The notes below the pieces were generated by a model. It saw only the letters and a program-made list of their open reading frames with translations, had not been told where the DNA came from and did not search any database. From a bacterium (GTDB lineage Bacteria; Cyanobacteriota; Vampirovibrionia; LMEP-6097), in the NCBI GenBank assembly GCA_038146805.1, contig JAYQSH010000005.1, positions 397,636 through 461,635 of the forward strand: 64,000 nt of DNA, in the 5' to 3' direction. This document shows, piece by piece, positions 8,569 to 50,644 of this stretch. The translations under genes and the position numbers were made by a program. The first letter of the stretch is position 1; each line of letters starts with the position of its first letter.

Positions 8569-8595
8569 TTAGACCCAATTAGGAAGCCAAAATCT

Positions 8596-9406: not shown

Positions 9407-9414
9407 AAATTTAA

Positions 9415-10143: not shown

Positions 10144-10240
10144 AAATAACAATATAGCATTTAAAAGCAAAATTTGAAGAAGGTGCTTAAAAACTCAAGT
10201 TTTCTTGACGCTTACTCAAAAAAATAGCTAAAATTATGGC

Positions 10241-12014: not shown

Positions 12015-12016
12015 TA

Positions 12017-12517: not shown

Positions 12518-12550
12518 AGCAGTTTTTCTAAAATGCTATAATTCTCTTTT

Positions 12551-13913: not shown

Positions 13914-14928
13914 TTTTTTGGTTATTAGTATGCAAGCAAGTTTTGCACATGGTGCTGGCTGTGCTTGTAATGCACTAAGACCCACAGCCATTGGTGGACC
14001 AATTATTACAATCCCAGCATATACCATGCCTAAAGGTACTTTTAGCATTGGTTATGGTTTAAATTATTTGAACAATCATAGACTCAACCAAAAACAAATT
14101 TTAAAAGTAATCAAAGCAGACGAACATGCTGATGATAATTATGGTTCTTTGAACCAAAGTCTTTCTATGGCGTGGGGAGCAAGTGACGATTTAAACTTTT
14201 TTGTTACCATGCCTTTTAATATTGCTTATGATTTTAGAGAGGTACATGATGGCATAGAAGATTTAGGAAATTCAATTGGCTTTGGTGATATGACGATTTT
14301 AGCTCAGTATAGATTTTTGAATCTTAGTAAAACCAACCTTGCCTTACTTGGCGGAATCAAATTGCCAACTGGTAAAACTCACGTTAAATCTAATACTGGT
14401 GAAACTTTTGAAGCTTTAAACAATCCGGGCTCAGGCTCTTTTGACCCACTATTTGGTTTTGCGCTTAGCAGACCTGTTGGCAGTTTTGGCTTAGATTTTA
14501 ATTTTTTGTATAAACTCGCAACCCAAGGAAGCCAAGACACAGATATTGGTGATGTTGCCAATTATAATTTTGCGATTAGTTATGCAGTCAATCATGACCA
14601 TAATAAAGAATTTGATCACAAACACAAACACCAAAAACAAAAAAAATTACTCACTAAAATTTTTCCTCAACATCTTTTTGGCAAACATTTAAGTTGGGAT
14701 TTGATTTTAGAACTTAATACCAATTGGGAAGCAAAGCCTGAGCAAAACAATATCAAAGACAATAATCATGGCGGCACATCAGTATTTTTAAGCCCGGGAA
14801 TTCGACTTGCAGTAGATGATAATTTCGTATATAACTTTGGACTTGGCTTTCCAATAATTGAAGACCTAAATGGCGAACAAGGTGGAACTGATTTACAATT
14901 GTATACAGGTTTTGCCATGAGTTTTTAG
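13867..14928 (+). CDS. outer-membrane beta-barrel protein with His/Lys-rich loop
   Basis: Signal peptide ([17 protein letters not shown]). Alternating amphipathic strands. C-terminal ...YTGFAMSF ending in Phe. Loop NHDHNKEFDHKHKHQKQKK. Confidence 0.6.
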   Translation: MKAFIHKMQKLFLALSFLVISMQASFAHGAGCACNALRPTAIGGPIITIPAYTMPKGTFSIGYGLNYLNNHRLNQKQILKVIKADEHADDNYGSLNQSLSMAWGASDDLNFFVTMPFNIAYDFREVHDGIEDLGNSIGFGDMTILAQYRFLNLSKTNLALLGGIKLPTGKTHVKSNTGETFEALNNPGSGSFDPLFGFALSRPVGSFGLDFNFLYKLATQGSQDTDIGDVANYNFAISYAVNHDHNKEFDHKHKHQKQKKLLTKIFPQHLFGKHLSWDLILELNTNWEAKPEQNNIKDNNHGGTSVFLSPGIRLAVDDNFVYNFGLGFPIIEDLNGEQGGTDLQLYTGFAMSF

Positions 14929-20937: not shown

Positions 20938-20985
20938 AACTTAGCATTTGGCTTAAACTTATCTTTGAAATTAGTACACTAAAGG

Positions 20986-21084
20986 GACGGTGTTTGATTC
21001 TTTTGTTAGGCGTGTCTAACCAAACCCTACTTATGCCCAAATCTAAAGACTCGAGATGCTTATTACGGGTTTGGAAGAACGCCC
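20986..21084 (+). repeat. MITE-like element, copy 1 (core 21009-21084 plus 23-bp 5' extension)
   Basis: GACGGTGTTTGATTCTTTTGTTA + GGCGTGTCTAACCAAACCC...GGGTTTGGAAGAACGCC. The core has imperfect terminal inverted repeats and a central CTCGAG. Confidence 0.85.
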
Positions 21085-30191: not shown

Positions 30192-30287
30192 TCAACCATT
30201 TTAACACTGCGAGCTGTGTCATTTTTATCTCACACTTAAGTAAAATCACTAAGTCTTTTGAGGAATCTTCAAGCTAAAGATAAAAAT

Positions 30288-30361
30288 GGGACAAAAATGA
30301 CACGGTCCGAAGTGTCTTAAAAATAGGACAAAAATAACACGGTCCGAAGTGTCTTATTAGA
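30288..30361 (-). repeat. two tandem 37-bp terminator-like hairpin units (minus orientation)
   Basis: GGGACAAAAATGACACGGTCCGAAGTGTCTTAAAAAT / AGGACAAAAATAACACGGTCCGAAGTGTCTTATTAGA, the reverse complement of the unit at 48699-48883. The second unit overlaps the stop of the ATPase gene. Confidence 0.85.
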
Positions 30362-37123: not shown

Positions 37124-37160
37124 GAGACAAAATGAACACGGTCCGAAGTGTCTTAGCTAA
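37124..37160 (-). repeat. single 37-bp terminator-like hairpin unit
   Basis: GAGACAAAATGAACACGGTCCGAAGTGTCTTAGCTAA. Lies downstream of the minus-strand ORF 37328..37987. Confidence 0.8.
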
Positions 37161-37261
37161 GCGACGGTGTTTGATTCTTTTGTTAGGCGTGTCTAACCAA
37201 ACCCTACTTATGCCCAAATCTAAAGACTCGAGATACTTATTACGGGTTTGGAAGCACGCCC
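37157..37261 (+). repeat. MITE-like element, copy 3 (full, with 5' extension)
   Basis: CTAAGCGACGGTGTTTGATTCTTTTGTTAGGCGTGTCTAACC...GGAAGCACGCCC, near-identical to 49151-49255. Confidence 0.88.
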
Positions 37262-37327
37262 TTTAATCAGGCTTGAATCAAAAGACTGCGTCAATTTTTT
37301 AGTAGATCCTTAAAAAAGCAAACCGTA

Positions 37328-37987
37328 TTAACAAGCTTGCCAAGTTTTTTTCGGCCCGATATTAGGACCAAGCTGAATATTTGATTCTTCAGCAGATTCT
37401 AGTAAATCTTTTAAACGACGAAAATCAGGACTTTGAGCACTGCTTAGATGATAATTACCTATACTTTGCCAAGGGCTTAAACTTGGTTCATCGTGAGTAG
37501 CAAAAGAATTTTCAAAACTTAACTCTCTATCTAGAAAAAATCGAGCAACATCAAGTTCAGCAGGATTTAAGTAATGCAAAGCATTTCTATTATTTCGATC
37601 TGTACAATGCAGATCGATTCCTTTTTTCTCTAAACTTTTTAGCATTTTGAGCTTTAAATTTTGGCTAATTTGACTTTTACGTAAGAGTTCTAGAATTAAA
37701 GGACGCTCAGAATGAGAATTATTACGATAAGAAAATAGATATTTAAATTCTCTTTGTTTTTGCGCAGATGCTTGATCCCAGATTGCTTCAAAGCGCCCAA
37801 TCAATGGACTAAATTCTTCATCTCGACTAGAAGTCAAAAATGCTTGCATAAAATCATCAAAGCTTTGCTCGGCTTCAGGACTAATTTGAACCTTTCTAGG
37901 ATTGATAATATCGTTCGTCAAGTGTTCAATTTCAGCTTGATTTAAACCACACATTTTTAGAACTTTTTTAAACATTGTTGAAAACAA
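37328..37987 (-). CDS. hypothetical protein (possible single ankyrin-like repeat)
   Basis: 219-aa ORF. The segment DRNNRNALHYLNPAELDVARFFL weakly resembles an ANK repeat. Confidence 0.45.
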   Translation of the reverse strand: MFSTMFKKVLKMCGLNQAEIEHLTNDIINPRKVQISPEAEQSFDDFMQAFLTSSRDEEFSPLIGRFEAIWDQASAQKQREFKYLFSYRNNSHSERPLILELLRKSQISQNLKLKMLKSLEKKGIDLHCTDRNNRNALHYLNPAELDVARFFLDRELSFENSFATHDEPSLSPWQSIGNYHLSSAQSPDFRRLKDLLESAEESNIQLGPNIGPKKTWQAC

Positions 37988-38027
37988 AGCAAGGTTTTCA
38001 TTATCTTGACTTGCGCATATTGATGGA

Positions 38028-39069
38028 TTCCAATATCAATTGCAACTCTGCTTGATTTGAGCCTGAAATACCTCTAAAGGTGTTTTCCATTTTAGCCTTT
38101 TTCTGGGTCTAGTGTTTAAAAGATGAATATAGTGCTGTAGATCTTCCTCTGAAAGGGTATTTAGATCAGTGCCTTTTGGAATGAATTGCCTTAAAAGTCC
38201 TATGAGATTCTCAATACTTCCTTTTTGCCAAGGGCTGTATGGTTTAGCAAAATACACCGTCATTTTTGTCTTTTCTTCAATTTCTTTATGCTTTGCAAAC
38301 TCTGTTCCGTTATCGTAAGTAACTGAAATCCTAAGTTCTTCTGGTATCTCTTTAAAATATTCTTCAGTAGCTTTTAAAACTGATTCAGCTTTTTTGTTTG
38401 GTAACTTTTTAGCTAAGACAAGACCACTTTTTCTTTCTAGATTAAGAACAATACATTCTTTTTTACCATGAGCACCTATGATAGTGTCGCCTTCCCAGTG
38501 ACCAAATTCAAGCCTCTCATTGGCTTCTATCGGTCTTTCATCAATTGATCTTTTATCAACAATGAATTCTGGGGTGGTCCTTTTCTTACGATATTTTTTA
38601 CCTTTTCTTCTCAAGTAAATTTTTATTAAATCAGGTCTTTTGGTTTGTAGCCATGTATATATGGTTTGATGAGATAAAGCTTCGTTGCACTCTTCAGTCC
38701 ATATCCCAGCAATTTGCTCTGGAGAATGGTAAGAAGTAATTTTTTCAATAACGAAGTTTTCAAGTAAGCTTTCATCAATAATTCTAGGATGATGGTTTGC
38801 AGTTCTTTTTCTTTCATGCATTAACTGCCAAGCTTCTTCAGCAACAAAATCACCATCAACAGAGTTATTGTTTACGCATCTGTAGACAACTGATTTATTT
38901 CTTCCTATGACAACAGCTATTTCTGCTGGATTAAGACCTTGATTTAGCAATGTCTCAATTCTAACTACTTCTTCCCAGGTCAAGTGACCCTTATATTTAA
39001 ATGACATATCAGCCTCCTGTATTTACTACATTTCGGCTAAATCCTTAAAAGTTGCATTTCGGTTTGGAA
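38028..39069 (-). mobile_element. intact IS30-family insertion sequence
   Basis: Imperfect ~40-bp terminal inverted repeats: TTCCAATATCAATTGCAACTCTGCTTGATTTGAGCC at the left, reverse complement of TTCCAAACCGAAATGCAACTTTTAAGGATTTAGCC at the right. Single transposase ORF. Exact ends +/- a few bp. Confidence 0.85.
38036..39007 (-). CDS. IS30-family transposase
   Basis: 323 aa. N-terminal HTH (LTWEEVVRIETLLNQGLNPAEIA). DDE core (HWEGDT ... YDNGTEF ... YSPWQKGSIEN). Confidence 0.9.
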   Translation of the reverse strand: MSFKYKGHLTWEEVVRIETLLNQGLNPAEIAVVIGRNKSVVYRCVNNNSVDGDFVAEEAWQLMHERKRTANHHPRIIDESLLENFVIEKITSYHSPEQIAGIWTEECNEALSHQTIYTWLQTKRPDLIKIYLRRKGKKYRKKRTTPEFIVDKRSIDERPIEANERLEFGHWEGDTIIGAHGKKECIVLNLERKSGLVLAKKLPNKKAESVLKATEEYFKEIPEELRISVTYDNGTEFAKHKEIEEKTKMTVYFAKPYSPWQKGSIENLIGLLRQFIPKGTDLNTLSEEDLQHYIHLLNTRPRKRLKWKTPLEVFQAQIKQSCN

Positions 39070-39678
39070 TTGTTCTATTTCTTGTTCTGTAAATTTAAGC
39101 AGAGGTGCTTTAATTGCTTGAATTAAAGGTTTCAAAGTTAGTTTTAACCTATTTAATAAATCATTTGCAATCTTATTAATTTTCTCTATTTTCTGACGAT
39201 CAGAAAGATTCTGTGCATCATTGTTTTTTTTCATAGAAGTAAATTTTCTTTTGCTAACTTTGGCGACAGTATTTAACCAAGAAAATAATTTTGCATAATC
39301 CAAAAGCTCTGGAAGGTCTTGAGATTGAAAATCTATTTGCTTACTATTCGCAGATCTTTTGCTTTCATAAAAATATGCAAAAAAATGATCTGCATAAGCT
39401 TGCAAAGAATTTTTAAATTGCATGTATAAATCCTGATCTTCAATAGTTGCAAATCTATAACAGTTATTTAAAAGATTAAAAACAGTATCAGGACTTTTGT
39501 TTAATAGCTGAACTGTTACAGAAACATTTGTGAACACAGCTTCAGGATCTTTAAGTGGAATATCGTGTTCTCTATACTCTCTTTGAATAGACACTAAAAC
39601 TTGATCCAAGTCTCTATGTTGTTCCTGAAATACTTTAAGAGTTTCTTCTCTTGGTAATATAGCTTGTATTGAAGTCAT
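39037..39678 (-). CDS. hypothetical protein
   Basis: 213-aa ORF with no recognised domain. Confidence 0.45.
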   Translation of the reverse strand: MTSIQAILPREETLKVFQEQHRDLDQVLVSIQREYREHDIPLKDPEAVFTNVSVTVQLLNKSPDTVFNLLNNCYRFATIEDQDLYMQFKNSLQAYADHFFAYFYESKRSANSKQIDFQSQDLPELLDYAKLFSWLNTVAKVSKRKFTSMKKNNDAQNLSDRQKIEKINKIANDLLNRLKLTLKPLIQAIKAPLLKFTEQEIEQFQTEMQLLRI

Positions 39679-39702
39679 AATATCTTACAAAGTAAGAATA
39701 TT

Positions 39703-39860
39703 AACAAAAGTCTTTCAAGATAACAATAAGGCAATACAGGATATTGCTAAACTAATTCTTATGATTATTAGATCTTTTGTTTTAATCTTTTTATTTTTTT
39801 TACAAAGCAGTGCATACGCTGTTGAAAAAAGAGAAATTGATAGCATTTTTAAAGCTAAAT
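39703..39860. repeat. left copy of 158-bp direct repeat (DR2) bracketing accessory segment 2
   Basis: 157/158 identical to 42544-42701. Comprises the upstream region and first 33 codons of the peroxidase gene. Confidence 0.92.
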
Positions 39861-39895
39861 CTGTTGCAACATCATTTCAGAAACTGTATTTCTAA
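39761..39895 (+). pseudogene. truncated 5' duplicate of the cytochrome c peroxidase gene
   Basis: MIIRSFVLIFLFFLQSSAYAVEKREIDSIFKAK is identical to the start of ORF 42602, then diverges to a stop after 44 codons. Confidence 0.85.
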
Positions 39896-41003
39896 AATGA
39901 ATACTTGCTTTTAAAAGAGTATCCAAAGTTATTTGGTCTTTAAATTGATTAAGAACATCAGTTTGATCAGCAGGATTTAATTTTTCAAATAACTGAGAAG
40001 ACAGTAAATCACTTAGACCCTGATTTTGTTTTACATTCGAGTTAAGCAAATCTTTTAAGAGAGTCAATTTATACTGATCCGGCAAATTTTGATAATCTTC
40101 TTGTTCAAAGAGAAATTGAGCAATTTCAGAAATAGGTGTCCCGCTGTTCCGCTTTTTGCTAAACTGTTGTTTAAGAGAAGAAAGCTTTTCATTTGGTTGT
40201 CTTTCCAATGTGATACCAGGATAGTTCCTTTCAAGCACAGTTCTTATTTGACGTCTTTCTTCAATAGAAAAATTCAAATGAGGAACTGTTGAAACAAAAA
40301 ATTCTACTCTTCGCTGTAATTGTTCGGGAGAAAGTTTTTCACTAGATCCTTTTTTAAGCGTAGCCATTAGGGCTTTAAAAAATGTTTTAGTGTTTGAGAT
40401 TTTTCTTGGCACATTCATAGGTTCAGGTATTTCTTCGTCCCTGATACCATGTATTTTGCACCATTCATCACATAATTTTTGTATTTTCTGCTCCCATCCC
40501 GATTGCCTTGCAAGTTTAAGTTGTTCCTCAATTTCTCTCACTCTTCTTAAACGAGCATTCTTTTGAGCAACTTGAGCATTATGGGCTACAGCTTGATCAA
40601 TCCTTTGTTTATTATCCTTTTGTTTTTGAGTAGTTACAGCATCAGAAACAACTGACAAAGAGCGCCCAGTTTCTCTTTTAAAATCATCTTCTTCCATTCT
40701 AGAGAGAGTTCTTAAAACTTTCGGATTAGCTGGATCCCATTTTTTAGCTTGCATATGCTTTAATATTGCTTCTATTGCTCGCGATGCTTTCAATCTTATA
40801 GCCATATTTAGTGCATGAAATAAATAATCTTTCTTTAATTGATGCTCATTTAAGAAAGTTGAAATAGAATCGGCTTCGATTGTTGAATTTGGATTAGAAT
40901 CACCAGCAACAAGTTGCTTTAGTTGTGAAGCCGGATCTCCTAAAAGTTCAGTGAAGGGTCTTCTAAGAAATGTTTCAGGAGGTATTATTGAAGTGCTACT
41001 CAT
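39855..41003 (-). CDS. hypothetical protein (island cargo)
   Basis: 382-aa ORF with no recognised domain. Its stop codon lies at the inner edge of DR2-left. Confidence 0.5.
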   Translation of the reverse strand: MSSTSIIPPETFLRRPFTELLGDPASQLKQLVAGDSNPNSTIEADSISTFLNEHQLKKDYLFHALNMAIRLKASRAIEAILKHMQAKKWDPANPKVLRTLSRMEEDDFKRETGRSLSVVSDAVTTQKQKDNKQRIDQAVAHNAQVAQKNARLRRVREIEEQLKLARQSGWEQKIQKLCDEWCKIHGIRDEEIPEPMNVPRKISNTKTFFKALMATLKKGSSEKLSPEQLQRRVEFFVSTVPHLNFSIEERRQIRTVLERNYPGITLERQPNEKLSSLKQQFSKKRNSGTPISEIAQFLFEQEDYQNLPDQYKLTLLKDLLNSNVKQNQGLSDLLSSQLFEKLNPADQTDVLNQFKDQITLDTLLKASIHFRNTVSEMMLQQI

Positions 41004-41084
41004 ACTAGATAAGAATAGCAGGCTGTTATCTATTTTTCAAATTCTTTTGGTAACTACTCAGGTCTAAAAAGCTAGTTTGAGCAC

Positions 41085-41205
41085 GTTTATTAAAGATTTA
41101 CAAGCATAAAGTATTGAAATCCCTTGTTTTTTGGCAGTATAAATAGTAGAAAGTATTGTGGCGTGACGTTTAGCGGTGTTTGGATTTCTAAAACAGCCTG
41201 AGATT
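41085..41205 (-). pseudogene. possible transposase C-terminal remnant (IS66-like tail)
   Basis: Reverse frame reads SGCFRNPNTAKRHATILSTIYTAKKQGISILYACKSLI. This is reminiscent of the RKNWLF....A..lYSLIETAK.NG tail of IS66-family transposases. Short, and matched from memory only. Confidence 0.3.
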
Positions 41206-41647
41206 TTCTAAAGCAAAACAAGAAAATGGCAAAAATTTAAATGGAATTCTAGATGGAGTCTTTAGTTTTGGTATAAAGAGAAATTGATTAGCATTCCTCC
41301 AGAAACCAACACAACTACTAAGTTTATGAACTTTAAGATTAGTTAAAGATAGAACTAGAGAAGGACTTCAAAAAATTTCAACAATAGGTTCTATTTAATA
41401 TACTAATCTAACAAATAGTACTTTCGCTTTATATTTCAAAGCGCAGGCTAAATTGTCAGATGGTGCAAAAGAAGATATATGCAGACTAATGAATCATTAT
41501 CGCTATGATCATTCCATATTTTTAGAAGAGCTTTTCTTGAAAAATTAGGGGTTAACATGGTGCTACGAAAGTATTTTCTAAAAAATTAAGCTAGAGTCTG
41601 GAAATTACCTATCAAATTGAATAAAACAAAGACCTTTTATCTTTAAT

Positions 41648-42454
41648 ATGACAAGAGTTGGTGAATCTAAATTCTCTCAAAAAGTTACTGTCGTTAGAAA
41701 GTCAGTAGACCCTGAACAGTGGTCTCATGTTGATATTAACTCTAAGCCTGGTAACTTTTTAATTAGAGCAGTAAATAGCCCTGAAGATTTTGAAAGAGAA
41801 TTTAATTCGGATACAGTCCCAAGACCTAAATCAAGAAATGGTATATGTGGTGGAGTGTCAACAATTCATGTTAATGGTAACAATCAAGAACCGTCTAATG
41901 ATGAAGCTTTATGCAATGCTTTAAGAGTATATGCAAGAAATGATAAAAAAATTGGTTACCTTCTTGATCGAGAAAGTCTTAAGAGTTCAGGAGTTAGAGT
42001 GGTGAATAACCCACACCGTTTTTATAGAGCCAAAGGTTTATATTCGAAGTCTACTAACGAATACTTTGATGAAGCAATCGTTTTAAATTCAATTCCAAAA
42101 GGTCATATTAAAGCACTCACAATTAGCGATGAGCATCTTGAAAATGAAGAAACAAAAATTGCTATTGGAAAATTAGCTAAAAAGTTTAATCTGCCTATCG
42201 TTTACATTGGTGCTCAGTATGATGTCTTAGAAGGTAAGCCAAAATTTGGAGATATTATTAAGATCTATGATTGTGGAGCAGTTAAATGTATCTCAAACCC
42301 TAATAAAGCAAAAAATACTAGACAAAATCATGAAAAGCAATCTGAGCTACTGATAAAGTATCAACCATTATTAAATACTAGAAGAATGCCACAAACAATA
42401 ATACCCAATAGTTCTTTGACTATGATTAAATTAAGAACTCAAATTAGTCCGTAA
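41648..42454 (+). CDS. hypothetical protein (island cargo)
   Basis: 268-aa ORF with no recognised domain. Confidence 0.5.
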   Translation: MTRVGESKFSQKVTVVRKSVDPEQWSHVDINSKPGNFLIRAVNSPEDFEREFNSDTVPRPKSRNGICGGVSTIHVNGNNQEPSNDEALCNALRVYARNDKKIGYLLDRESLKSSGVRVVNNPHRFYRAKGLYSKSTNEYFDEAIVLNSIPKGHIKALTISDEHLENEETKIAIGKLAKKFNLPIVYIGAQYDVLEGKPKFGDIIKIYDCGAVKCISNPNKAKNTRQNHEKQSELLIKYQPLLNTRRMPQTIIPNSSLTMIKLRTQISP

Positions 42455-42543
42455 GACTACAAAACAATATCTGCTTCCTTGTAAGTAAATATAGTGGGAA
42501 TAAAAGTGGTAAACAAAAGATTGAAAAATTTTTGGATCTAAGC

Positions 42544-42701
42544 AACAAAAGTCTTACAAGATAACAATAAGGCAATACAGGATATTGCTAAACTAATTCT
42601 TATGATTATTAGATCTTTTGTTTTAATCTTTTTATTTTTTTTACAAAGCAGTGCATACGCTGTTGAAAAAAGAGAAATTGATAGCATTTTTAAAGCTAAA
42701 T
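42544..42701. repeat. right copy of DR2
   Basis: See 39703-39860. Confidence 0.92.
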
Positions 42702-43903
42702 GCATGGATTGCCATAGTAATGAAACACATTTACCTTGGTATGCAGAGTTGCCCATAGCCAAGCAATTAATTACGGCTGATATTAATAAAGGTAGGTCAT
42801 ATTTTTTATTTAGCAGAGATTTTTTTCAATATGAAAACCACGAAGATATTCCAAAACATGTAATTAAAAGATTACAACATGAAATTGCACATGATTATAT
42901 GCCTCCATATATATATAGATTTGCGCACTTAGATAAAATTATTAGCCAAGAAGAAAAACAAAAAATTCTTGCCTTTTTGAACCAACAAGAAGAATCATTG
43001 TTAGAGCCTTTACCGCTCAAAAGTGAACTTAAGCTAGATAGCAAAAAAGTCGCTCTGGGCAAAAAACTTTACCACGACACTAGGCTTTCGCATGATAATT
43101 CTTTGTCATGTGCAAGTTGTCATGATTTAGCAAAAGGTGGAACTGATCAAGCTATTAGTTCAACTGGTATCAACGGACAGATAGGACCGATCAACTCACC
43201 TACAACTTATAACTCTGTTTACAACATCAGACAGTTTTGGGATGGCAGAGCACAAGACTTAGAAGAACAAGCACATGGACCAGTAAATAACCCCGGAGAA
43301 ATGGGGTCTGACTGGAAAGAAGTTATTGCAAAACTAAAAAAAGATTCTGAGTTAATGCAAGAATTCAAAGAAGTTTATGACACAAAAAAAATCACAGGCG
43401 ATATGATTGCAAATGCTATTGCCGAATTTGAAAAATCACTTATCACGGCAAACTCACGATTTGATGCTTACCTAAGAGGAGACAAAACTGTTCTTAGCCA
43501 AAGTGAACTTAAAGGTTACAAACTTTTTGAGAAACACAATTGTAGTAGTTGTCACTTTGGCAAAGCTATTGGTGGAAGAACTTTTAGAAAAATGGGTATC
43601 GCACATGATTACTTCAACGATCGTAAACAAGGCTTAAATGGCTTAAAAGCAAAAGCAATCACAGAGGTTGATGCAGGCTTATTCAATCAAACTCACAAAG
43701 AAGCTGATATAGGTGTATTTAAAGTTCCTATACTAAGAAATATCGAACTTAGTTTTCCATATCTGCATGATGGTAGCTTAAACACTTTAGAACAAACTGT
43801 AGAAGTAATGGCTTACTATCAAAATGGAACTAAAATCAAAAAACAAGAGCGAGATTTGATTGTAGCTTTCTTAAAAACATTAACTGATGAGGATTTGAAA
43901 TAA
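42602..43903 (+). CDS. di-haem cytochrome c peroxidase (CCP/MauG family) with extra N-terminal haem-binding module
   Basis: CASCH and CSSCH haem c motifs in a CCP-like context (..GRAQDLEEQA..P..NP.EMG..). An additional CMDCH...LPWY motif follows the signal peptide. Confidence 0.82.
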   Translation: MIIRSFVLIFLFFLQSSAYAVEKREIDSIFKAKCMDCHSNETHLPWYAELPIAKQLITADINKGRSYFLFSRDFFQYENHEDIPKHVIKRLQHEIAHDYMPPYIYRFAHLDKIISQEEKQKILAFLNQQEESLLEPLPLKSELKLDSKKVALGKKLYHDTRLSHDNSLSCASCHDLAKGGTDQAISSTGINGQIGPINSPTTYNSVYNIRQFWDGRAQDLEEQAHGPVNNPGEMGSDWKEVIAKLKKDSELMQEFKEVYDTKKITGDMIANAIAEFEKSLITANSRFDAYLRGDKTVLSQSELKGYKLFEKHNCSSCHFGKAIGGRTFRKMGIAHDYFNDRKQGLNGLKAKAITEVDAGLFNQTHKEADIGVFKVPILRNIELSFPYLHDGSLNTLEQTVEVMAYYQNGTKIKKQERDLIVAFLKTLTDEDLK

Positions 43904-44046
43904 TTAACTTTGTTGATTACTGCATTATTTTTATATATTTTGCTTTAATTTTAAGCAGTGGTTTTATTGTTAGAAAATTTTTCAAACAAAAAAGCGTTGA
44001 AACACAAGAAGATTATTTTTTAGCTGGTCGTAAACTTACAACTCCA

Positions 44047-45297
44047 ATGTTTGTAGCGACACTAGTAACAACTTGGTATGGCAACTTACTTGGTGTTACA
44101 GAAATGGCTTACAAAGAGGGTTTGGTGCAATGGCTGACCCAAGGTATTTTTTGGTATGCCGCTTATGTGTTTTTTGCTTTTTTTATTGCAAAAAAAATTC
44201 GCAAATCTAAATTATTTACTTTGCCAGATCAACTTGAAAAATTTTACGACCGTAAAACAGCTATTTTGGGAGCATTGATAAATTTAATTATGCTCAGCCC
44301 TGCAGCATATATTTTATCTATGGGCTTAATTTTTGAAATTATTTTTCAAATACCCTTAAGCCAAGGCTTAATAATTGGCAGTATTATAACTTTTATTTAT
44401 ACCTTTAGAGGTGGTTTTAAAGCTGTTGTAGTAACTGATATGCTGCAATTCTTTTTTATGTTTTTAGGCTTAGCTTTAATTATTCCTTTTGCCATTAACA
44501 AATTTAGTCTCACACAACTCTTAGCAAATATCCCAAACTCTCATCTAAGCCTGACTGGGTCTTACTCATGGCAAATTGTGCTTGCTTGGCTAGTGATTGC
44601 TTCATGGACACTAATAGACAGTAACTTCTATCAAAGATGTTATAGTGCTCGGGATTATAAAACAGCTCAACGAGGAATTTTAATAGCAACAGCTTTTTGG
44701 TTTGTTTTTGATTTTATGGTCTGCCTAGTTGGCTTATTTGCTTTTTCAGCAATGCCAAATTTAGAACCTGCTACGGCTTTAGTCGGATTTGCTAATTCCG
44801 TATTACCGCCAATTGCCAAAGGTGTTTTTTTTACTGGATTACTTGCAACAGTAATGTCAACTTTAGATTCTTTAAGTTTTTCAAGTGCCATGTGCTTTAC
44901 AAAAGATATTTACCAAAGAATCTTTAAAGTTACAGATACAACAAAAGTTATTTTTGTAAATAAAATTACTATTACCGTTGTGGTTTTATTGGGGATTATA
45001 GTTGCAATTAATTTTCAATCATTAATAAAACTCATGTACTATAAAGCTTCCATTGGCATTAGCGGTTTACTTTTACCACTTTTATGTGGGTTTTTTTTAA
45101 AGAAAAAACTCAATGCCAATAGTGCTTTTTTTAGCATAATTGCAGGATCAAGCGCCTGTATCATCTGGCTCATACTACAAAAGCTCTATATTATTAGTAT
45201 TAATTTTGAAGCAATCTTTGTAGGCTTACTTGCTTCAAGCATAACAATGTTCGCAATTGAATTTCAACAAAGGCGGGATTATAATAAAAATAGATGA
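44047..45297 (+). CDS. sodium:solute symporter family transporter
   Basis: Polytopic membrane ORF. Homology-like sequence, including the EDYFLAGR motif, continues in frame upstream to ~43897. No canonical start codon is present there, so the true start is unresolved. Confidence 0.7.
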   Translation: MFVATLVTTWYGNLLGVTEMAYKEGLVQWLTQGIFWYAAYVFFAFFIAKKIRKSKLFTLPDQLEKFYDRKTAILGALINLIMLSPAAYILSMGLIFEIIFQIPLSQGLIIGSIITFIYTFRGGFKAVVVTDMLQFFFMFLGLALIIPFAINKFSLTQLLANIPNSHLSLTGSYSWQIVLAWLVIASWTLIDSNFYQRCYSARDYKTAQRGILIATAFWFVFDFMVCLVGLFAFSAMPNLEPATALVGFANSVLPPIAKGVFFTGLLATVMSTLDSLSFSSAMCFTKDIYQRIFKVTDTTKVIFVNKITITVVVLLGIIVAINFQSLIKLMYYKASIGISGLLLPLLCGFFLKKKLNANSAFFSIIAGSSACIIWLILQKLYIISINFEAIFVGLLASSITMFAIEFQQRRDYNKNR

Positions 45298-47174
45298 ATT
45301 TCTTGAGGCTTTTATTTTTAACTTTTACAATAAGTTGGTTCTTAATACCAGACAAATGTTTTGCCACAAGATTTAAAACTTATCAAGGCTTAGTTGAAAT
45401 ACTTTTTATTGATTCACATGATAAACCACAAAAAATTTATAAATTAATTTTAGAAGATGGTTCAAAAATAATTTTAAAAACAAAAAAAGATCCTAATTTT
45501 GCTCCTCTTGAAGCAGTAACAATTCAAGGTGCAATTAAAAACAACAAACTATACGCAAAAGAAATTATACGCAAAAAAGATAGATCTTTAATGAATTCAA
45601 ATTCCTATCGCAGTGGTAATAGAAAGCTATTAGTTGTACAGATTACAGACGCTGGATTTTCAGAAAGTTTTATTCCATATACAAGTAGCGAGATTAATGA
45701 CTTTTATTTTAGTGACTCAATATCAGTCAAAGACTATATTGCAGAAAATTCTGATACTCGGTTAAATATTACTGGACTTACTATAGACACACTCGCTGTA
45801 CCAAATCTATGTCAAAATGATCAACTTTTTGATAGGTCAATTGAAACTACTGTACTTGCCACCGTAGACACTCTTATAGATGACTTAGATAGCTATAGCT
45901 ATGCACATATCATAGTTCCAGACAAAGATGAATGTTTAGCAAATGCTGCAGGCATTGGTACAGTAGGAAATACCATATATAGTTCTGCAAAACATGGAAA
46001 TATTTTTCTTGGCGTGAGCTTTATTAGAGCTTACAATCAAAGTAGCTATGAATATACTTTCTTAAGCACAATATTACATGAGTTAGGACATAATATTGGC
46101 TTAGGACATGCAAATGCTAATTCTTGTGGTGTAGATGTCTTTCAAAGCAAAGCTTGCACCGGAATTGAATACGGTGATGGTCATAGTATTATGGGAACAG
46201 CACCTACGCTTGCTCATTTTAATGGCATACAAAAACAAGACCTCGGCTGGTTAAACAGCAATCAGATTTTAACAGTGGATTCTGATACAAGCCTAGAAAA
46301 TATCAGCTTAATTCCAATGGCAAGTAGCGCGGCTGGCTATAAAATGATTCGCATCAAAAGAAATGATGGACTATATTACAGCATAGAATATAGACAAGCA
46401 CATGGTTATGATGATGTATTAGAAAGAAGTTTTTTAAACAAAAACTTTTCTGGGTTTTTAGTTTATGTAGATGAAGAAAATATTGGTAATAGACCAGTGC
46501 TTATTGATAGCGAGTTTGAAGACTTTAGAGCAAGCTCAGAATATATCTCTGGGTCTTATTCATATTATTCAAACTACGATATGACAAGCTCAATGAATGA
46601 AAGAGCTTTATTTGCTGTTGGGGAAGATTTTGATGATAATGTAAACAAAATATTAGTACAAACAACAGAACTTACGACTGATGCCGCAACTATTAATATC
46701 AAAAAAGGTGATTGCTTTTATAGTGACAACTCAGAGGGTGATGAAAACGATAATTCAGACGAGGAAGATTTTACAAGCAATTTTTTAGATTTCAAAGATT
46801 TAGCTTCAGAAATCTATCTTAAATACAAAAGACCCAGCAAAATTCTTTTGGATATTTCAGCAAATTTGCAAGAAGCTCAAAATGGTATGAAATTTAAAAT
46901 CACGAAATCAGCAAATTTTAAAAATGTTACCAAGATAAAGAAAAACTCTTTTCATTATCAGCGAGATGGCAGAGTAAAAATTTTAGTGGCACCAGAACGA
47001 AAACTTATTAAACAAGGTTATGTTGCTGACGAAAATGGAGAATACACACTAGAAGTTTTGATAAAACAAAAATCAAAAAGACCTAGTTTTACTCCGAGAG
47101 TTTTGGAATTTAAAGTCAAATCTAAAGACTCGAGATACTTATTACTGGTTTGGAAGCACGCCCATAATTTATAA
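45294..47174 (+). CDS. secreted zinc metalloprotease (HEXXHXXGXXH metzincin-type motif)
   Basis: Signal peptide (LLFLTFTISWFLIPDKCFA). HELGHNIGLGHAN motif. The last ~19 codons (KSKDSRYLLLVWKHAHNL) are MITE-derived. Confidence 0.72.
   Translation: MNFLRLLFLTFTISWFLIPDKCFATRFKTYQGLVEILFIDSHDKPQKIYKLILEDGSKIILKTKKDPNFAPLEAVTIQGAIKNNKLYAKEIIRKKDRSLMNSNSYRSGNRKLLVVQITDAGFSESFIPYTSSEINDFYFSDSISVKDYIAENSDTRLNITGLTIDTLAVPNLCQNDQLFDRSIETTVLATVDTLIDDLDSYSYAHIIVPDKDECLANAAGIGTVGNTIYSSAKHGNIFLGVSFIRAYNQSSYEYTFLSTILHELGHNIGLGHANANSCGVDVFQSKACTGIEYGDGHSIMGTAPTLAHFNGIQKQDLGWLNSNQILTVDSDTSLENISLIPMASSAAGYKMIRIKRNDGLYYSIEYRQAHGYDDVLERSFLNKNFSGFLVYVDEENIGNRPVLIDSEFEDFRASSEYISGSYSYYSNYDMTSSMNERALFAVGEDFDDNVNKILVQTTELTTDAATINIKKGDCFYSDNSEGDENDNSDEEDFTSNFLDFKDLASEIYLKYKRPSKILLDISANLQEAQNGMKFKITKSANFKNVTKIKKNSFHYQRDGRVKILVAPERKLIKQGYVADENGEYTLEVLIKQKSKRPSFTPRVLEFKVKSKDSRYLLLVWKHAHNL
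47117..47163 (+). repeat. MITE-like element, copy 4 (right half only)
   Basis: CAAATCTAAAGACTCGAGATACTTATTACTGGTTTGGAAGCACGCCC. Confidence 0.8.
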
Positions 47175-47176
47175 AG

Positions 47177-47261
47177 TGGTGGGCTTGTAGAGAGTCGAAC
47201 TCTAACGCCTTACGGCACATGATCCTAAGTCAAGCGCGTCTACCAATTCCGCCACAAGCCC
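47177..47261 (-). tRNA. tRNA-Leu (anticodon UAG), CCA encoded
   Basis: Reverse strand reads GGGCTTGTGGCGGAATTGGTAGACGC...CTTAGGA loop (anticodon TAG). Long variable arm. T-arm TAGAG-TTCGACT-CTCTA. Acceptor CAAGCCC-ACCA. One T:T mismatch in the anticodon stem. Confidence 0.88.
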
Positions 47262-47385
47262 AAAATGCATAAAACTAGAAATCATTAATAGTTTTACTTT
47301 TTAACAAAATAGCACAAAATTAGTTACTATTAAAATATCTATTGATTAATTAAGCATTTAGATTTAAAAAAAGCAAAGGCATCAA

Positions 47386-48033
47386 ATGTTAGAAGATCAG
47401 CTCAAAAAAATAGATATAAATACAGATTATGCTTTATCACAAAATAAAGTAAAACTTGTTGCTGTCTCAAAATATGCCAGTGATGAACAAGTTCAAGAAG
47501 CCTACGATCTTGGCATAAGAGATTTTGGTGAAAATTACATAATGCCTGCTCTCAAAAGACAAAAAACTTTGAATTTTAGAGATGAGGTTAGATGGCATTT
47601 ACTTGGACCCATACAAAAAAACAAAATCAATAAAGTAGTTGGGAACTTTGATTTAATCCATTCCGTACATACACAGGAGATTGCTTACTTAATAAATCAA
47701 AAGCAGAAGCACTTAACTTGGTACAAAATATTTTGCTTCAAGTAAATTTAACACAAGACAAATCAGGATTTTTAGAATCAGAAATTGAAGAGGTTTTTTT
47801 AGATTTAGTCAAATTAAAAATATAAAGATCCAAGGTTTAATGTTAATGAATTATCATGAAATTCTCAAAAAACAGAAACTAATTTTAATCGCATGCGTCT
47901 TTTGAAAGAGATGATGACAACTCATTGTCCAAATAGTGATTTTGAACTATCAATGGGAATGTCAAATGATTATCATCTTGCTGTCAAAAATGGCGCAACA
48001 ATAATTAGGATAGGCAGAAATCTGTTTTCTTAA
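47386..48033 (+). pseudogene. yggS: YggS/YlmE-family PLP-binding protein gene with several frameshifts
   Basis: The N-terminal 119 aa are intact (VAVSKY..., FGENY, WHLLGPIQKNK). Downstream conserved blocks (LLQVNLTQDKSGF; KIQGLMLM; [29 protein letters not shown]) lie in different frames. Confidence 0.7.
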
Positions 48034-48056
48034 AATGGGAGTACAATAAAAGTTCG

Positions 48057-48551
48057 ATGTTTAAATTAAAAAAATTGTGGATGGGTCCAGAAAATAAAGA
48101 TATCAAAGAAGGTTTTGATAATTTATTTGACATAGAGGATGATTATAAAATTCCAGCACCAACAGCGGAAGTAAAAACACGCTTAAATTCAATGACAGAC
48201 TCAGGTATACAAGAAAACAAAAAAGAAGGATTTGACGCAGCTATGGAATCAGTATTTGGAAGAAAGCAAGGAAATGAGAATTACGAAAGAGCAAATTTCA
48301 ATTCGTCACCTTTACAAGTTGTTCAACACGGAACCAATGGTGTAAACATTGTGGTTGTTGAACCTAGAAGTTTTGAAGATAGTTTAGAAATAGTAAATAA
48401 TTTAAAAGAAAGAAAATCAGTAATTGTAAACTTGCAATATTTAGATCAAGAAATGTCACAAAGAGTTATTGATTTTGTCAGTGGAGCAACTTTGGCTTTA
48501 GATGGTACTCAAGAAAGAGTAGGTCATGGAGTATTTATTTTGCTTCTATGA
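48057..48551 (+). CDS. sepF: cell-division protein SepF (3' end probably frameshifted)
   Basis: VVVVEPRSFEDSLEIVNNLKERKSVIVNLQYLD...RVIDFVSGATLALDG domain. The expected tail (..FIFASMNCTVQ..) continues in another frame to 48622. Confidence 0.78.
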   Translation: MFKLKKLWMGPENKDIKEGFDNLFDIEDDYKIPAPTAEVKTRLNSMTDSGIQENKKEGFDAAMESVFGRKQGNENYERANFNSSPLQVVQHGTNGVNIVVVEPRSFEDSLEIVNNLKERKSVIVNLQYLDQEMSQRVIDFVSGATLALDGTQERVGHGVFILLL

Positions 48552-48659
48552 ACTGCACTGTACAAACAGAAAATATTAGTCATAAATCTTATAAAGATTT
48601 ATTTGGCAAAGCTTTTAATTAAGTATAAAAATTTCCCATACCCCCAACTCCTGTTACAA

Positions 48660-48689
48660 AAACCCAAGGCTAATCGCTTTGGGTTTTTG
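48660..48689 (+). terminator. intrinsic terminator downstream of sepF
   Basis: AACCCAAGG...CTTTGGGTTTTT hairpin plus T-run. Confidence 0.65.
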
Positions 48690-48698
48690 TACTCAGTA

Positions 48699-48883
48699 AT
48701 TATTAGAACACTTCGGACCGTGTTCATTTTGTCTCATTATTAGGACACTTCGGACCGTGTTCATTTTGTCTCATTATTAGAACACTTCGGACCGTGTTCT
48801 TTTTGTCTCATTATTAGAACACTTCGGACCGTGTTCTTTTTGTCTCATTATTAGAACACTTCGGACCGTGTTGATTTTGTCTC
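48699..48883 (+). repeat. five tandem 37-bp terminator-like hairpin units
   Basis: Unit ATTATTAGAACACTTCGGACCGTGTTC(A/T)TTTTGTCTC. Unit boundaries at 48699, 48736, 48773, 48810 and 48847. No spacers. Confidence 0.92.
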
Positions 48884-49150
48884 ATGAATCAATAAATTAA
48901 CCTAGCTACTGTTAACAAATCCCAATAACTGCCCTACTCTACTGCCTCAAAGTCATGATTTACAAGCAGTAAACTGAAGCCTTTTTGGGGCGCTAGAAGT
49001 CCTTGTTCTCAAAATTTGTTAATGGGACTGATTCCAAACCCCATTTTGAATTTTAAAATACAGTGAAATGTTAAAATCACTAGCAAATGGGGTCAGAAAT
49101 CAGTCCCACAAACGACCTTACGCTTAGCTTGTTTCACTGCGTAAAACTCA

Positions 49151-49255
49151 CTAAGCGACGGTGTTTGATTCTTTTGTTAGGCGTGTCTAACCAAACCCTA
49201 CTTATGCCCAAATCTAAAGACTCGAGATACTTATTACGGGTTTGGAAGCACGCCC
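49151..49255 (+). repeat. MITE-like element, copy 5 (full, with 5' extension)
   Basis: Near-identical to 37157-37261. Accounts for ORF-track entry 49087..49269. Confidence 0.88.
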
Positions 49256-49465
49256 TTAATAGCAGCTAATAATGTTTTTTTTTAGTATCCACTGAAAAAT
49301 GCTAGTTCATCGATTTCTCAACCCTGATCCAAGAGTAGAACTTAGCTCAGGGACTGAATCCTTAATATTTTTGTTAAGCGGATAGCACCTCAAAACTGCG
49401 TTTTTCAGCGAATCCATAAAATTAAAAATGCTTTGAAGCAAGCTCTTGACCTTGAGGGCTAATTC

Positions 49466-50644
49466 TTAACTTGCAACAAACAAAGCCCCTCTTCTTGAAA
49501 CACGCCCTTGTAGTTCTAAGTCTGATAAATGATTCATCAAATCTAATTGAGAATTATATGATAAGTTACATAATAAAAGATCAAAATCATTAATACCAGA
49601 GTCTAAGAGCTCAATTAGAGGGTCGTCTAGTTTTGAATTTGGTTTTTGTTTTGTGTAAGATTTTGAATTTATTTTTGAGTTTGTGCTTAATTTTAGATTT
49701 GAAGCATTAAAATTCACTTGCCTAGTTTGCCTTGTTTTTGTTTGCGTATTGGTTTTCATTATTGCTCCTTTTGATTTTGTAATCGATTCTTTTAAATAAG
49801 GTTCTAAATCTAGATAACTAATAATTGCGCTTGCCTTAAATAGAGGCTTAGCAAAACCATTATGCAAAAGTTCTAGCCCACCAGCAAAACTTTTTTTATT
49901 GATATCACTAACTAAAACATAAAGGTCTTTTTCTAGATCTAAGCAATGTTTAGCAGTAATTAAAGCCCCACTATCTTGCGGTGCTTCAAGCACAACACAA
50001 GTATTAGCAAGCGCTGATATTAAACGATTGCGCTGAGCAAAACTATAATGAGTCGCATTTTGCATAGGGTGATATTCAGAAATCACTAAGCCCTTTGCTT
50101 GCAAGTCTTTAAAAACTTGATTTTGTTTGCCGTAATATTTAAAGCTTAAATGCCCTGATGCAATAACAGCAATACTAGCAATATCATGTTTTAAAGCAGT
50201 ACAATGTGCCGTCAAATCTATGCCGCGAGCTAAACCACTAACAACAGTAACAGCATAATCTTGCAAAACTTCTACCATAACAGCACAACTATGCTCAGCA
50301 TAAAAAGAAGAATTTCGTGTACCCACAACAGCCAAATTAAAATTAGAACTAACTAAATCATAATTACCGACATAATATACTAAGGCTGGCGGATTTGATA
50401 AATGATAAAAAACAGAAGGATAATTATCATCGGCAAAACAAGAATAATAAATACTGTGCTTTGCAGCAAAAGTTTCAAGCTCTGTTTTACTAAGTTCAAT
50501 ATCAGCTTTACTAATATTGAACTCGAGGAGCAAATTATCTAAATTATTTAAAGACTTAATTAGCTTTTGATCAGTGCATAAATTATGCTTCTTGATATGA
50601 TTAAAGACATAAGCTTTGTAAGCATTTTGTTCAAAGTTTTGCAT
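49466..50644 (-). CDS. dprA: DNA-processing protein DprA
   Basis: Rossmann-like DprA core (AVVGTRNSS.Y, VVSGLARGIDLTAH) and a C-terminal winged-helix-like tail. Confidence 0.82.
   Translation of the reverse strand: MQNFEQNAYKAYVFNHIKKHNLCTDQKLIKSLNNLDNLLLEFNISKADIELSKTELETFAAKHSIYYSCFADDNYPSVFYHLSNPPALVYYVGNYDLVSSNFNLAVVGTRNSSFYAEHSCAVMVEVLQDYAVTVVSGLARGIDLTAHCTALKHDIASIAVIASGHLSFKYYGKQNQVFKDLQAKGLVISEYHPMQNATHYSFAQRNRLISALANTCVVLEAPQDSGALITAKHCLDLEKDLYVLVSDINKKSFAGGLELLHNGFAKPLFKASAIISYLDLEPYLKESITKSKGAIMKTNTQTKTRQTRQVNFNASNLKLSTNSKINSKSYTKQKPNSKLDDPLIELLDSGINDFDLLLCNLSYNSQLDLMNHLSDLELQGRVSRRGALFVAS

Follow-up and report, generated by a model that had tools for sequence, protein, structure and literature searches.

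How could a segment of 2.7 kb come to lie about 30 codons into a gene and yet leave that gene intact? The question is raised by the cytochrome c peroxidase locus in the stretch of DNA analysed here, 64,000 nucleotides of a bacterial contig (hereafter the window), where the 5' end of the gene is present on both sides of the segment. A preliminary description had proposed that the segment was inserted into the gene with duplication of about 150 bp of target, that the gene was kept, and that the same had occurred twice in 64 kb. This core reading was borne out, since alleles with an empty site were found at both loci. The peroxidase locus is composed as follows.

39703-39860, plus strand: left copy of the target duplication (DR-L), carrying most of the divergent intergenic region and peroxidase codons 1-33.
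39761-39895, plus strand: stub ORF of 44 codons, 33 from the signal-peptide region of the peroxidase and 11 derived from the insert.
39861-42543: inserted DNA, 2,683 bp, missing from 16 contigs of the same species.
42544-42701, plus strand: right copy of the target duplication (DR-R), the 5' head of the intact peroxidase gene.
42602-43903, plus strand: intact di-haem cytochrome c peroxidase gene (PF03150, E 5e-59; PF14376, E 1e-25).

Alignment of 39703-39860 with 42544-42701 gave a direct repeat of 158 nt with 157/158 identities (99%), as first described, and within the 64-kb window the repeat sequence is present in these two copies only. It is made up of 58 bp of upstream sequence and the first 33 codons of the gene at 42602-43903, the identity of which as a cytochrome c peroxidase was confirmed by the two Pfam matches; the insertion point lies 100 bp into the gene. 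The truncated left stub and the intact right gene were likewise recovered. The peroxidase protein encoded by the filled allele is identical in empty-site strains, and dN/dS of the gene is about 0.1. A promoter and terminator scan of the repeat returned fewer matches than shuffled sequences. The single base that distinguishes the two copies is a SNP private to DR-L (T at 39713). A SNP (G) that is missing from several empty alleles is present in both copies; together with the near identity of the copies, this indicates that the duplicated sequence was that of the recipient lineage itself.

The empty site, with a single 158-bp copy and no insert, is represented by sixteen metagenome contigs of the same species. 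In the empty allele L001, window positions 39076-39860 align with 9316-10100 and window positions 42544-46600 with 9943-13999, so that the single copy, at 9943-10100, aligns with both DR-L and DR-R. The filled site was found in five contigs. Three of these (L006, L012 and L013), from separate assemblies, read across both junctions, and a fourth (L014) contains the insert with both of its edges and stops 30 and 43 bp into the repeats. The fifth (L045) represents a second lineage; its right junction is identical, and it is diverged by about 5% across the ORF382 half of the insert. Filled and empty alleles lie on different peroxidase haplotypes. The nearest genome in the species collection is a lake MAG, with a peroxidase identity of 66%. 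A scan of genome contigs and metagenome contigs with ORF382, a DNA pattern scan and a plasmid blastn revealed no copy of the insert and no donor context beyond the known locus, and the insert matched no plasmid record.

The sixteen one-copy sites and the filled contigs establish, by alignment, that 39861-42543 was genuinely inserted, with duplication of 158 bp of target, and is not an assembly artefact. Metagenome contigs do often break at repeats, as L014 itself illustrates, but contigs from several assemblies cross both junctions into unique flanks. An assembly duplication, which the preliminary description had listed, if further examples were also lacking genome-wide, as refuting its reading, is excluded by these contigs, with L014 supplying both insert edges and L045 the right junction. 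It had also named a history in which IS elements entered independently after a simple tandem duplication; among about 22 contigs no allele carries the bare tandem duplication, and the insert edges are not IS ends. Taken together, an artefact or a history of this kind is scarcely credible. We also considered and rejected a scheme in which a larger region was duplicated in tandem and a deletion followed: neither the window nor any contig contains a second copy of the insert, and the whole of it is crossed by short-read assemblies.

The second locus for which the same layout had been claimed, 35 kb from the peroxidase insertion, proved to have a target duplication and an empty site of its own.

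3920-9079, plus strand: segment 1, flanked by a 145-bp target duplication (3920-4064 and 8933-9079).

Its repeat runs from the last 6 nt of a tRNA-Ala gene to codon 26 of a 134-aa gene, and in the insert (4,868 bp, 4065-8932) there are three orphan ORFs together with a relic of IS30 that an IS701-family element interrupts. Three contigs (L021, L022 and L029) carry the empty site, and a third allele exists at the locus. The two repeat copies show the same SNP pattern as the 158-bp repeats, that of the recipient lineage's own sequence. A 340-bp high-GC block at the right end of the segment had no Rfam, Pfam or plasmid match and no excess folding energy; its interpretation as a tmRNA, a tRNA, another RNA or a protein fragment was rejected.

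Does the peroxidase insert carry the means of its own insertion? The following features were found in it.

39855-41003, minus strand: ORF382, an orphan gene for a predicted all-alpha protein, whose last sense codon and stop codon come from DR-L.
41067-41207, minus strand: remnant of an IS66-family transposase, from its C-terminal tail (NF033517 positions 345-379 of 387, E 1.6e-5).
41276-41296, plus strand: 21-nt match, with one indel, to peroxidase codons 23-29 (42668-42688), of marginal significance.
41648-42454, plus strand: ORF268, encoding an orphan protein with no homologues but its own copies.
42425-42519, plus strand: decayed 5' end of an IS30-family element (inner terminal repeat, leader and transposase start), truncated at or before the right breakpoint at 42543.

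No integrase, transposase or recombinase was detected in the insert other than the IS66 and IS30 relics, both truncated and with ends away from the junctions. The IS66-like tail, suspected from the start, is real but weak: in addition to the NF033517 match it gave weak tblastn matches to annotated IS66 transposases and was not reported by Pfam. The IS30 relic shares an 18-nt exact match with segment 1 (7601-7618), and in an extended alignment with the IS30 5' end of segment 1 it scored 70, with shuffled sequences reaching at most 46 (0/500). Its terminal repeat points inward, and the breakpoint is not at the end of the element but about 95 bp within it. At the left, the edge of the insert lies at or inside the 3' end of ORF382. 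No terminal inverted repeats were found. The preliminary description had called for a search for conserved element termini, and local alignments of the four inner ends of both segments, in both orientations, yielded nothing above shuffles. Neither homology between the sequences to the left of DR-L and of DR-R nor an IS30 relic to the left of DR-L was significant. The lack of machinery and of shared termini, and edges that pass through ORF382 and the IS30 relic, make the insert look like an arbitrary fragment joined through illegitimate recombination.

A dedicated element would be one alternative, either a transposon making long duplications or an island inserted by an integrase at an attachment site that includes the target gene's 5' end. 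IS30 relics are present in both segments, an active-looking IS30 adjoins, and the segment-1 repeat begins at the 3' end of a tRNA-Ala gene, a classical integrase target. However, the intact local IS30 duplicates only 3-4 bp, compared with 158 bp here, and neither insert nor the annotated flanks contain an integrase or other recombinase; no motif is common to the four inner ends, and the segment-1 repeat extends downstream of the tRNA gene and not into it. Islands and prophages moved by tyrosine recombinases at tRNA or gene ends do share with these loci the flanking target repeats and the reconstituted target gene, and segment 1 adjoins a tRNA gene; they differ in having an integrase and a conserved attachment core, whereas here the recipient's own sequence was duplicated and the edges cut a gene and an IS relic. 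Within the IS30 family, IS1630 makes a target duplication of 19-26 bp, longer than usual, and IS30-family sequences occur in both segments. The duplications described here are nevertheless six to eight times longer, and the junctions are not at IS ends. The inverted repeats of the insert include no attC-type imperfect palindromic end site and there is no integrase, so that neither an attC cassette nor an IntI/attI platform of the integron type was recognized. The dedicated-element reading is largely refuted by these observations and we regard it as very improbable.

Insertion of DNA together with a long duplication of its target is nonetheless a described phenomenon. It was termed 'insertion with long target duplication' (Nobusato, Uchiyama, Ohashi & Kobayashi, Gene 2000; Furuta, Abe & Kobayashi, NAR 2010, PMC2853133). 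The class was found through restriction-modification genes, and DNA breakage by the restriction enzyme was proposed as its driver (PMC2853133). The inserts are shorter than 20 kb and lack a responsible integrase or transposase, and the direct repeats, of tens to about 400 bp, are single-copy in a related empty genome and often span a translation start, which was explained as keeping the target gene intact (PMC2853133). The peroxidase insertion fits this class on its sequence features. Its repeats exceed 30 bp (158 bp, and 145 bp for segment 1), an empty site with one repeat copy is available at each locus (L001 and the other empties, 16 in all; L021, L022 and L029 for segment 1), the 2,683-bp insert has no integrase, transposase or prophage to account for it, and the repeat is unique, not multicopy, within the 64-kb window. 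The operational criterion of Furuta et al. 2010 also includes R and M genes in the insert (PMC2853133); PADLOC, Pfam and NCBIfam returned no match to such genes here. The class has been recognised for non-restriction-modification DNA as well, as 'other DNAs' (PMC3457768). The layout that the preliminary description had considered unusual is thus real at both loci but is not new. What differs is the cargo, here orphan genes and IS wreckage, the bacterium, which is uncultured and whose genome measures about 1 Mb, and the occurrence of two events 35 kb apart.

We therefore favour, with a probability of roughly 0.6, a strain-variable insertion with long target duplication, in which two illegitimate joints linked a fragment to the chromosome, where it was retained since its neighbours were undamaged. 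The fragment, devoid of machinery or termini of its own, would have been joined through two illegitimate, RecA-independent, microhomology-type joints placed 158 bp apart in 'overlapping' order. Behind a replication fork the target exists as two sister copies, and the ends of the fragment could have joined these. Alternatively, a nascent strand may have left its template for the foreign DNA at codon 33 and returned 158 bp upstream, or a staggered break may have been filled in, giving the same product. Sister-chromatid joining, template switching and the filled-in staggered break would all fit the sequence alike. Fork stalling with template switching and microhomology-mediated break-induced replication, known mainly from human structural variants, produce templated insertions with flanking duplication. 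They resemble the present case in that one replicative process can yield the order duplication-insert-duplication with arbitrary breakpoints, and we know of no documented use of such template-switching insertion as a route of gene gain in bacteria.

Most accidents of this kind would destroy a gene, and the event at the peroxidase site probably survived through its duplication: the left copy would serve as the upstream region of the neighbouring 431-aa gene, and the right copy would provide the promoter, start codon and signal peptide of the peroxidase. If only events that spare their neighbours survive, repeats built from gene 5' ends would be expected, as in both events of the window. Once established, the 158-bp repeats would allow precise loss by homologous recombination and the homologous flanks would allow spread between strains, so that the locus would stay polymorphic.

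The same polymorphism would arise if a small circle, either a plasmid or an excised 2,841-bp circle, bearing a 158-bp host fragment had integrated in the manner of Campbell by one RecA-dependent crossover. The product is formally identical to that of single-crossover integration, with the insert between two copies of the homology and precise reversal possible; 158 bp suffice for homologous recombination, and excision and re-integration via the repeats would yield an insert common to two lineages alongside frequent empty alleles. This requires, however, a pre-existing circle for each of the two loci, with 145-158 bp of exact host sequence, and the first such circle still needs two illegitimate joints between the cargo and its host fragment. 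The insert, moreover, carries no replication, mobilisation or other plasmid function and has no plasmid match. The junction of such a circle would have the same sequence as the repeat arrangement in the chromosome. We consider this route unlikely.

The flank on the left of the repeat has a history of its own, centred on the following neighbour.

37328-39678, minus strand: 431-aa orphan gene, left neighbour of the repeat, split by an IS30 insertion and intact in empty-site strains.
38022-39075: the IS30 element inside the 431-aa gene, with a 3-4 bp target duplication.

Strains differ in whether they carry the 431-aa gene. L041, in which the junction and the repeat's left end are 5 bp apart, lacks it, as does L036, the closest related genome. 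Three alleles occur at the site upstream of the peroxidase gene, namely none, the 431-aa gene, and the 431-aa gene with ORF382 and ORF268. On this strain comparison the variable presence of the 431-aa gene and its lack in L036 show the site to be a hot spot. Repeated insertion here had been suggested before from a third, degraded fragment of the peroxidase 5' region. The 21-nt match with one indel does exist, and yet it is barely above chance (its score was reached in 2/300 shuffles and in 0/44 other real 2.7-kb chunks of the window) and is too weak to support repeated insertion; the notion itself stands on the distribution of the 431-aa gene.

Alternative cassettes with nearly coincident boundaries at one site, as the L041 junction illustrates, are also what would be expected if homologous recombination had contributed. 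In a one-sided or multi-step scheme, ORF382 and ORF268 would have formed an alternative cassette in a donor strain, immediately upstream of the promoter of the peroxidase gene. A transformed donor fragment could then have recombined by homology in or beyond the peroxidase gene, with an illegitimate joint at recipient codon 33. Alternatively, the cassette and 158 bp would have been duplicated in tandem, and the left part replaced by homology with the 431-gene allele, a pathway depicted by Lim et al. 2012 (Fig. 6A(ii)). The minimal mobile elements of Neisseria, alternative cassettes swapped by transformation between conserved flanking genes, offer a parallel in that one intergenic site carries differing orphan cassettes per strain; they are defined without flanking duplications, in contrast to the 158 bp of target duplicated here. 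A dprA gene in the window (49466-50644, PF02481 annotation), the different peroxidase haplotypes of filled and empty alleles and the prior proposal of the pathway speak for such a scheme. Against it, none of the about 22 contigs carries the donor allele and more steps are needed than in a single two-joint event. In addition, DR-R starts 8 bp inside the 431-cassette sequence of the empty alleles (AACAAAAG), which argues for a 431-bearing chromosome as the origin of the duplicated block. This scheme is possible but, in our estimation, doubtful, and the two-joint insertion is preferred.

The two duplications are similar, 145 and 158 bp, and extend from about -60 to +80/+100 relative to the start codon. 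With n = 2, it may be that a specific process, and not selection acting on random accidents, lies behind this similarity in size and geometry, a suggestion that we find quite improbable. DNA might, for instance, be captured where a promoter-proximal region is open or forms an R-loop, or where about 150 bp are wrapped by protein. The 12-mer AAGAGAAATTGA, with six occurrences in the window (1.95 expected), all in or at the two segments, could be part of such a site. If true, fast-evolving orphan genes would be installed by a specific process in a small genome that lacks integrases.

Which genes were gained? The two ORFs of the insert are ORFans, as initially proposed: ORF382 and ORF268 had no Pfam, NCBIfam or PADLOC match, and collections of 5.8e9 and 1.8e9 proteins contained no homologue of either except their own copies. 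PDB sequences, two single-sequence AlphaFold models and Foldseek gave no informative match as to function (the ORF268 model, with a pLDDT of 30, was unusable), and no paralogy was detected among the orphan ORFs of the window. Comparison with the second lineage, L045, revealed 41 nonsynonymous and 3 synonymous changes in ORF382 (dN/dS 4.15; binomial p 0.006), and the count of changes was 44/460 for coding compared with 5/482 for intergenic sequence. In the same lineage ORF268 is wrecked by a 658-bp deletion. As judged by these substitutions, ORF382 is under strong diversifying selection, a pattern expected for a host-interaction or surface protein; the bacterium, with its small genome of about 1 Mb, is probably host-associated.

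Insertion with long target duplication has been known since 2000 from genome comparisons, without an established mechanism and tied to restriction-modification genes. The present case adds two clean events, separated by 35 kb and each accompanied by an empty site, a cargo other than restriction-modification genes, edges that run through a gene and an IS relic, and a small, probably host-associated genome. On these grounds, we would argue that the insertion process needs nothing from its cargo. It appears to be a general route of accident plus selection by which gene-dense genomes gain genes with their neighbours unbroken, and the two loci are hot spots at which a natural population acquires and loses orphan genes that are under diversifying selection.

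The largest two-copy repeat of the 64-kb window is a 158-nt direct repeat (39703-39860 and 42544-42701, 99% identity in a repeat search) that encloses a 2,683-bp insert. It runs from 58 bp 5' of the ATG at 42602 to the end of codon 33 of a cytochrome c peroxidase gene. The preliminary description gave it as 58 bp of upstream sequence plus 33 codons with a stub on the left; repeat search and sequence reading confirmed this as written. The duplication covers nearly all of the 82-bp divergent intergenic region, and the left copy also supplies the final sense codon and stop codon of ORF382, the first ORF of the insert. The features of the locus are as follows.

37261-39702, region of the 431-aa gene cassette (IS30 excluded), compared with L041 1-170 and L036 9815-10000
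38022-39075, IS30-family element in the 431-aa orphan gene, intact-looking, 323-aa transposase (NF033563, E 3e-78)
39761-39895, stub ORF of 44 codons from the left repeat copy
39855-41003, minus strand, ORF382
41067-41207, minus strand, IS66 transposase tail (last 35 residues of the NCBIfam IS66 model)
41648-42454, plus strand, ORF268
42425-42519, IS30 5'-end relic, aligning to the 5' end of the segment-1 IS30 (inner terminal repeat, leader and start codon region)
42602-43903, di-haem cytochrome c peroxidase (PF03150, E 5e-59; PF14376, E 1e-25)

An exact-protein look-up of the peroxidase returned 19 contigs from unrelated metagenomes; in 9 of the 10 displayed, the 431-aa gene lies on the minus strand directly 5' of the peroxidase gene. 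By BLAST, window 39076-39860 corresponds to 9316-10100 of contig L001 and window 42544-46600 to 9943-13999. The two matches share exactly 158 bp of this contig, and related strains therefore carry a single copy with nothing in between. Look-ups with variants of the peroxidase brought in more empty alleles, one lineage at synonymous divergence 0.17 among them, for a total of 16 empty contigs. The filled allele was found in JGI assemblies 3300061608, -09 and -10 and in one Logan assembly: L006, L012 and L013 cross both junctions into unique flanks, and L014 contains the insert with both its edges. Another contig, L045 (ENA ERZ27275788), has a copy that is 5% diverged across the ORF382 half, with an identical right junction and a different peroxidase haplotype. 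The insertion is old enough to be common to two lineages. In L045, ORF268 is destroyed by a 658-bp deletion that removed two thirds of it (L045 936-942 compared with window 41485 / 42144). Only a few bases of microhomology are present at the joint, which is direct evidence of illegitimate deletion acting on insert DNA. L036, the related genome closest to the window (66% identity in the peroxidase), and the most diverged strains are all without the insert; the polarity is clear, the insert having been gained.

An assembly artefact was excluded by the occurrence of the filled allele in separate assemblies, by junctions that are read through and by the diverged copy in L045.

Both repeat copies carry G where several empty alleles have A, and the left copy has one private change. 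Since such SNPs are common to both copies, here and in the sister event at 3920-9079 (segment 1), the duplicated block is the recipient lineage's own sequence. A diverged copy imported by an element is thereby ruled out as its source.

The preliminary description had pointed to segment 1 as a second locus with an insert and a duplication of about 150 bp, and empty-site contigs bear this out. In L021, L022 and L029, window 4064 is joined to 8933 with a 145-bp overlap, which makes segment 1 an insertion of 4,868 bp whose target duplication (3920-4064 / 8933-9079) measures 145 bp. The repeat starts with the last six bases of tRNA-Ala, takes in a terminator-like hairpin and stops at codon 26 of an orphan gene of 134 aa; two lineage-specific SNPs are present in both copies. 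The cargo comprises three orphan ORFs, an IS30 relic with an IS701-family element inside, and a high-GC block. A third allele made of unrelated DNA was seen in L023, L025, L027 and L028 (positions 1-780), 5' of the DsbA-like gene (window 9413), where it replaces the 134-aa orphan gene. These contigs stop within it, so that it is seen without its left boundary; it codes for small proteins that are probably secreted.

The high-GC block forms the right end of segment 1 (8596-8932, 340 bp, 50-62% GC against 33% for the genome). Its terminus ...AAATCCCCCACCA resembles a tRNA-like 3' end and adjoins the CCACCA of tRNA-Ala. ARAGORN, Rfam, Pfam and plasmid searches of the block were all empty, and its folding energy was not in excess (z +1.1).

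The two sites are insertion hot spots, and the peroxidase site itself is variable. L041 joins window 37161 straight to 42549 (equivalent to 39708), without the 431-aa gene and without the insert, and in L036 the ATP synthase alpha and peroxidase genes are immediate neighbours (L036 9815-10000). The 431-aa gene, flanked in empty alleles by TTTTACA / TCTTACA, is an accessory cassette itself, with a boundary 8 bp from the left end of the 158-bp repeat. Because it is absent in L041 and L036, the intergenic site took at least two separate orphan cassettes. The IS30 within it has a 3-4 bp target duplication (TATT), is missing from all empty-site contigs and is only about 75-80% identical to the segment-1 IS30 relic.

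Recurrent insertion at this site had first been proposed from a 21-nt third fragment of the peroxidase 5' region, and it is better backed by the presence or absence of the 431-aa cassette. The fragment is a marginal match: 2 of 300 shuffles scored as high, and none of 44 other real sequence chunks did. With one mismatch allowed, the 12-mer AAGAGAAATTGA is present 6 times in the window (4057, 39829, 40108, 40528 on the minus strand, 41276 and 42670) against 1.95 expected, and all six sites belong to the two segments or lie at them; chance plus the repeat may account for this.

Several small elements were observed in the same window. One family of about 100 bp forms a long imperfect hairpin, GGCGTG..CCAAACCC / GGGTTTGG..CACGCC (DNA fold z -2.2), with these copies.

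20985-21084, hairpin element
37162-37260, hairpin element
47117-47168, partial hairpin element
49156-49257, hairpin element

Two copies are missing in other strains (L021, L001), the L042 copy is shortened, and the partial copy provides the last 17 codons and stop of an M12-like peptidase gene. Across the filled locus L006 and the window agree at 99.9%; L006 diverges past 47125 and matches again at 86% near 49012, and comparison of window 47126-49011 with L006 8168-8315 points to a further variable block with copies of this element at its borders. ORFs of only 119 and 164 aa at 47386-47745 and 48057-48551 stand where other strains have the YggS-like (216 aa) and SepF (188 aa) genes, and are either pseudogenes or source-assembly indel errors. 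A tandem array at 48662-48922 consists of about six 37-nt units, each with the hairpin ACACTTCGGACCGTGT; related single units lie near 30286-30359 and 37127-37155, and units of this type are found 3' of the ATP synthase alpha gene, exactly where the variable cassette region starts on the left.

Neither ORF382 nor ORF268 had a family, defence-system or structural match, or any homologue but their own copies among 5.8e9 or 1.8e9 proteins; single-sequence models were poor (pLDDT 30 and 62) and Foldseek gave none. The IS66-like tail suspected between the two ORFs is real, as judged by the NCBIfam match (E 1.6e-5), Pfam being silent there. The IS30 relic has an 18-nt exact core and an alignment score of 70 (shuffle maximum 46). 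It is oriented toward the junction and is truncated about 95 bp from its own end, so no IS terminus marks the right breakpoint; the left one is at the last codons of ORF382. The insert ends have no terminal inverted repeats. The four inner ends of segments 1 and 2, whose comparison had been proposed as a search for conserved element termini, showed no mutual similarity. A dedicated element, the only one of three rival explanations that the data clearly contradict, is very improbable. The insert is a patchwork of orphan genes and IS remnants, and its edges are arbitrary.

Between the window and L045, the coding part of ORF382 differs at 44 of 460 nt, against 5 of 482 in adjacent intergenic DNA. 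The changes are 41 nonsynonymous and 3 synonymous (dN/dS 4.15, binomial p 0.006). For the 431-aa gene, comparison of close strains gives dN/dS 1.6-3.4; the value for the peroxidase is about 0.1, and the ATP synthase gene shows zero nonsynonymous changes. The orphan genes appear to be expressed, and selection on them to be diversifying or strongly relaxed, as one would expect of proteins at the surface or in host interaction. With a source contig of 1,041,516 bp and a GC content of about 33%, the genome is small and AT-rich, and the life style is probably host-associated.

Taken together, the data show a duplicated target, arbitrary edges, an insert devoid of recombinase genes, two independent events and a locus that is polymorphic in the population. 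We infer two illegitimate joints, 158 bp apart and in overlapping order. These could form if the two ends of a fragment joined two sister copies of the target, by a template switch from codon 33 into foreign DNA and back 158 bp upstream, or by fill-in of a staggered break. One-sided homology, or tandem duplication plus replacement, with an unseen donor allele, is an unlikely alternative to the two illegitimate joints, and Campbell-type integration of a circle is more doubtful still. Because the duplication spans nearly the whole intergenic region, the native sequence 5' of both neighbours is retained, and the peroxidase loses neither its start nor its signal peptide. That both repeats are built of a gene's 5' end we attribute to a selective filter, not to targeting. 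The 158-bp repeats would allow precise loss of the insert, which, with recombination in the flanks, would explain why filled and empty alleles coexist.

The class 'insertion with long target duplication' was described when Helicobacter pylori genomes were compared (Nobusato et al. 2000), and a survey across bacteria followed (Furuta et al. 2010, PMC2853133). In that survey, the repeats were from 45 to about 420 bp long and often took in the start or the stop of translation, so that the target gene was preserved; the majority of cases were in naturally competent species, and no established mechanism was stated. The present insert shows all structural features of the class but lacks R and M genes, the one operational criterion it does not share. 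The window is annotated with a dprA gene, a candidate competence gene. The finding is thus real and had been correctly described, and the recurrent process proposed for it was soundly reasoned; the class into which this process falls is known and seldom documented. New here are a cargo other than restriction genes, breakpoints at arbitrary positions, the occurrence of two events within 35 kb, fast-evolving orphan genes and a small genome.
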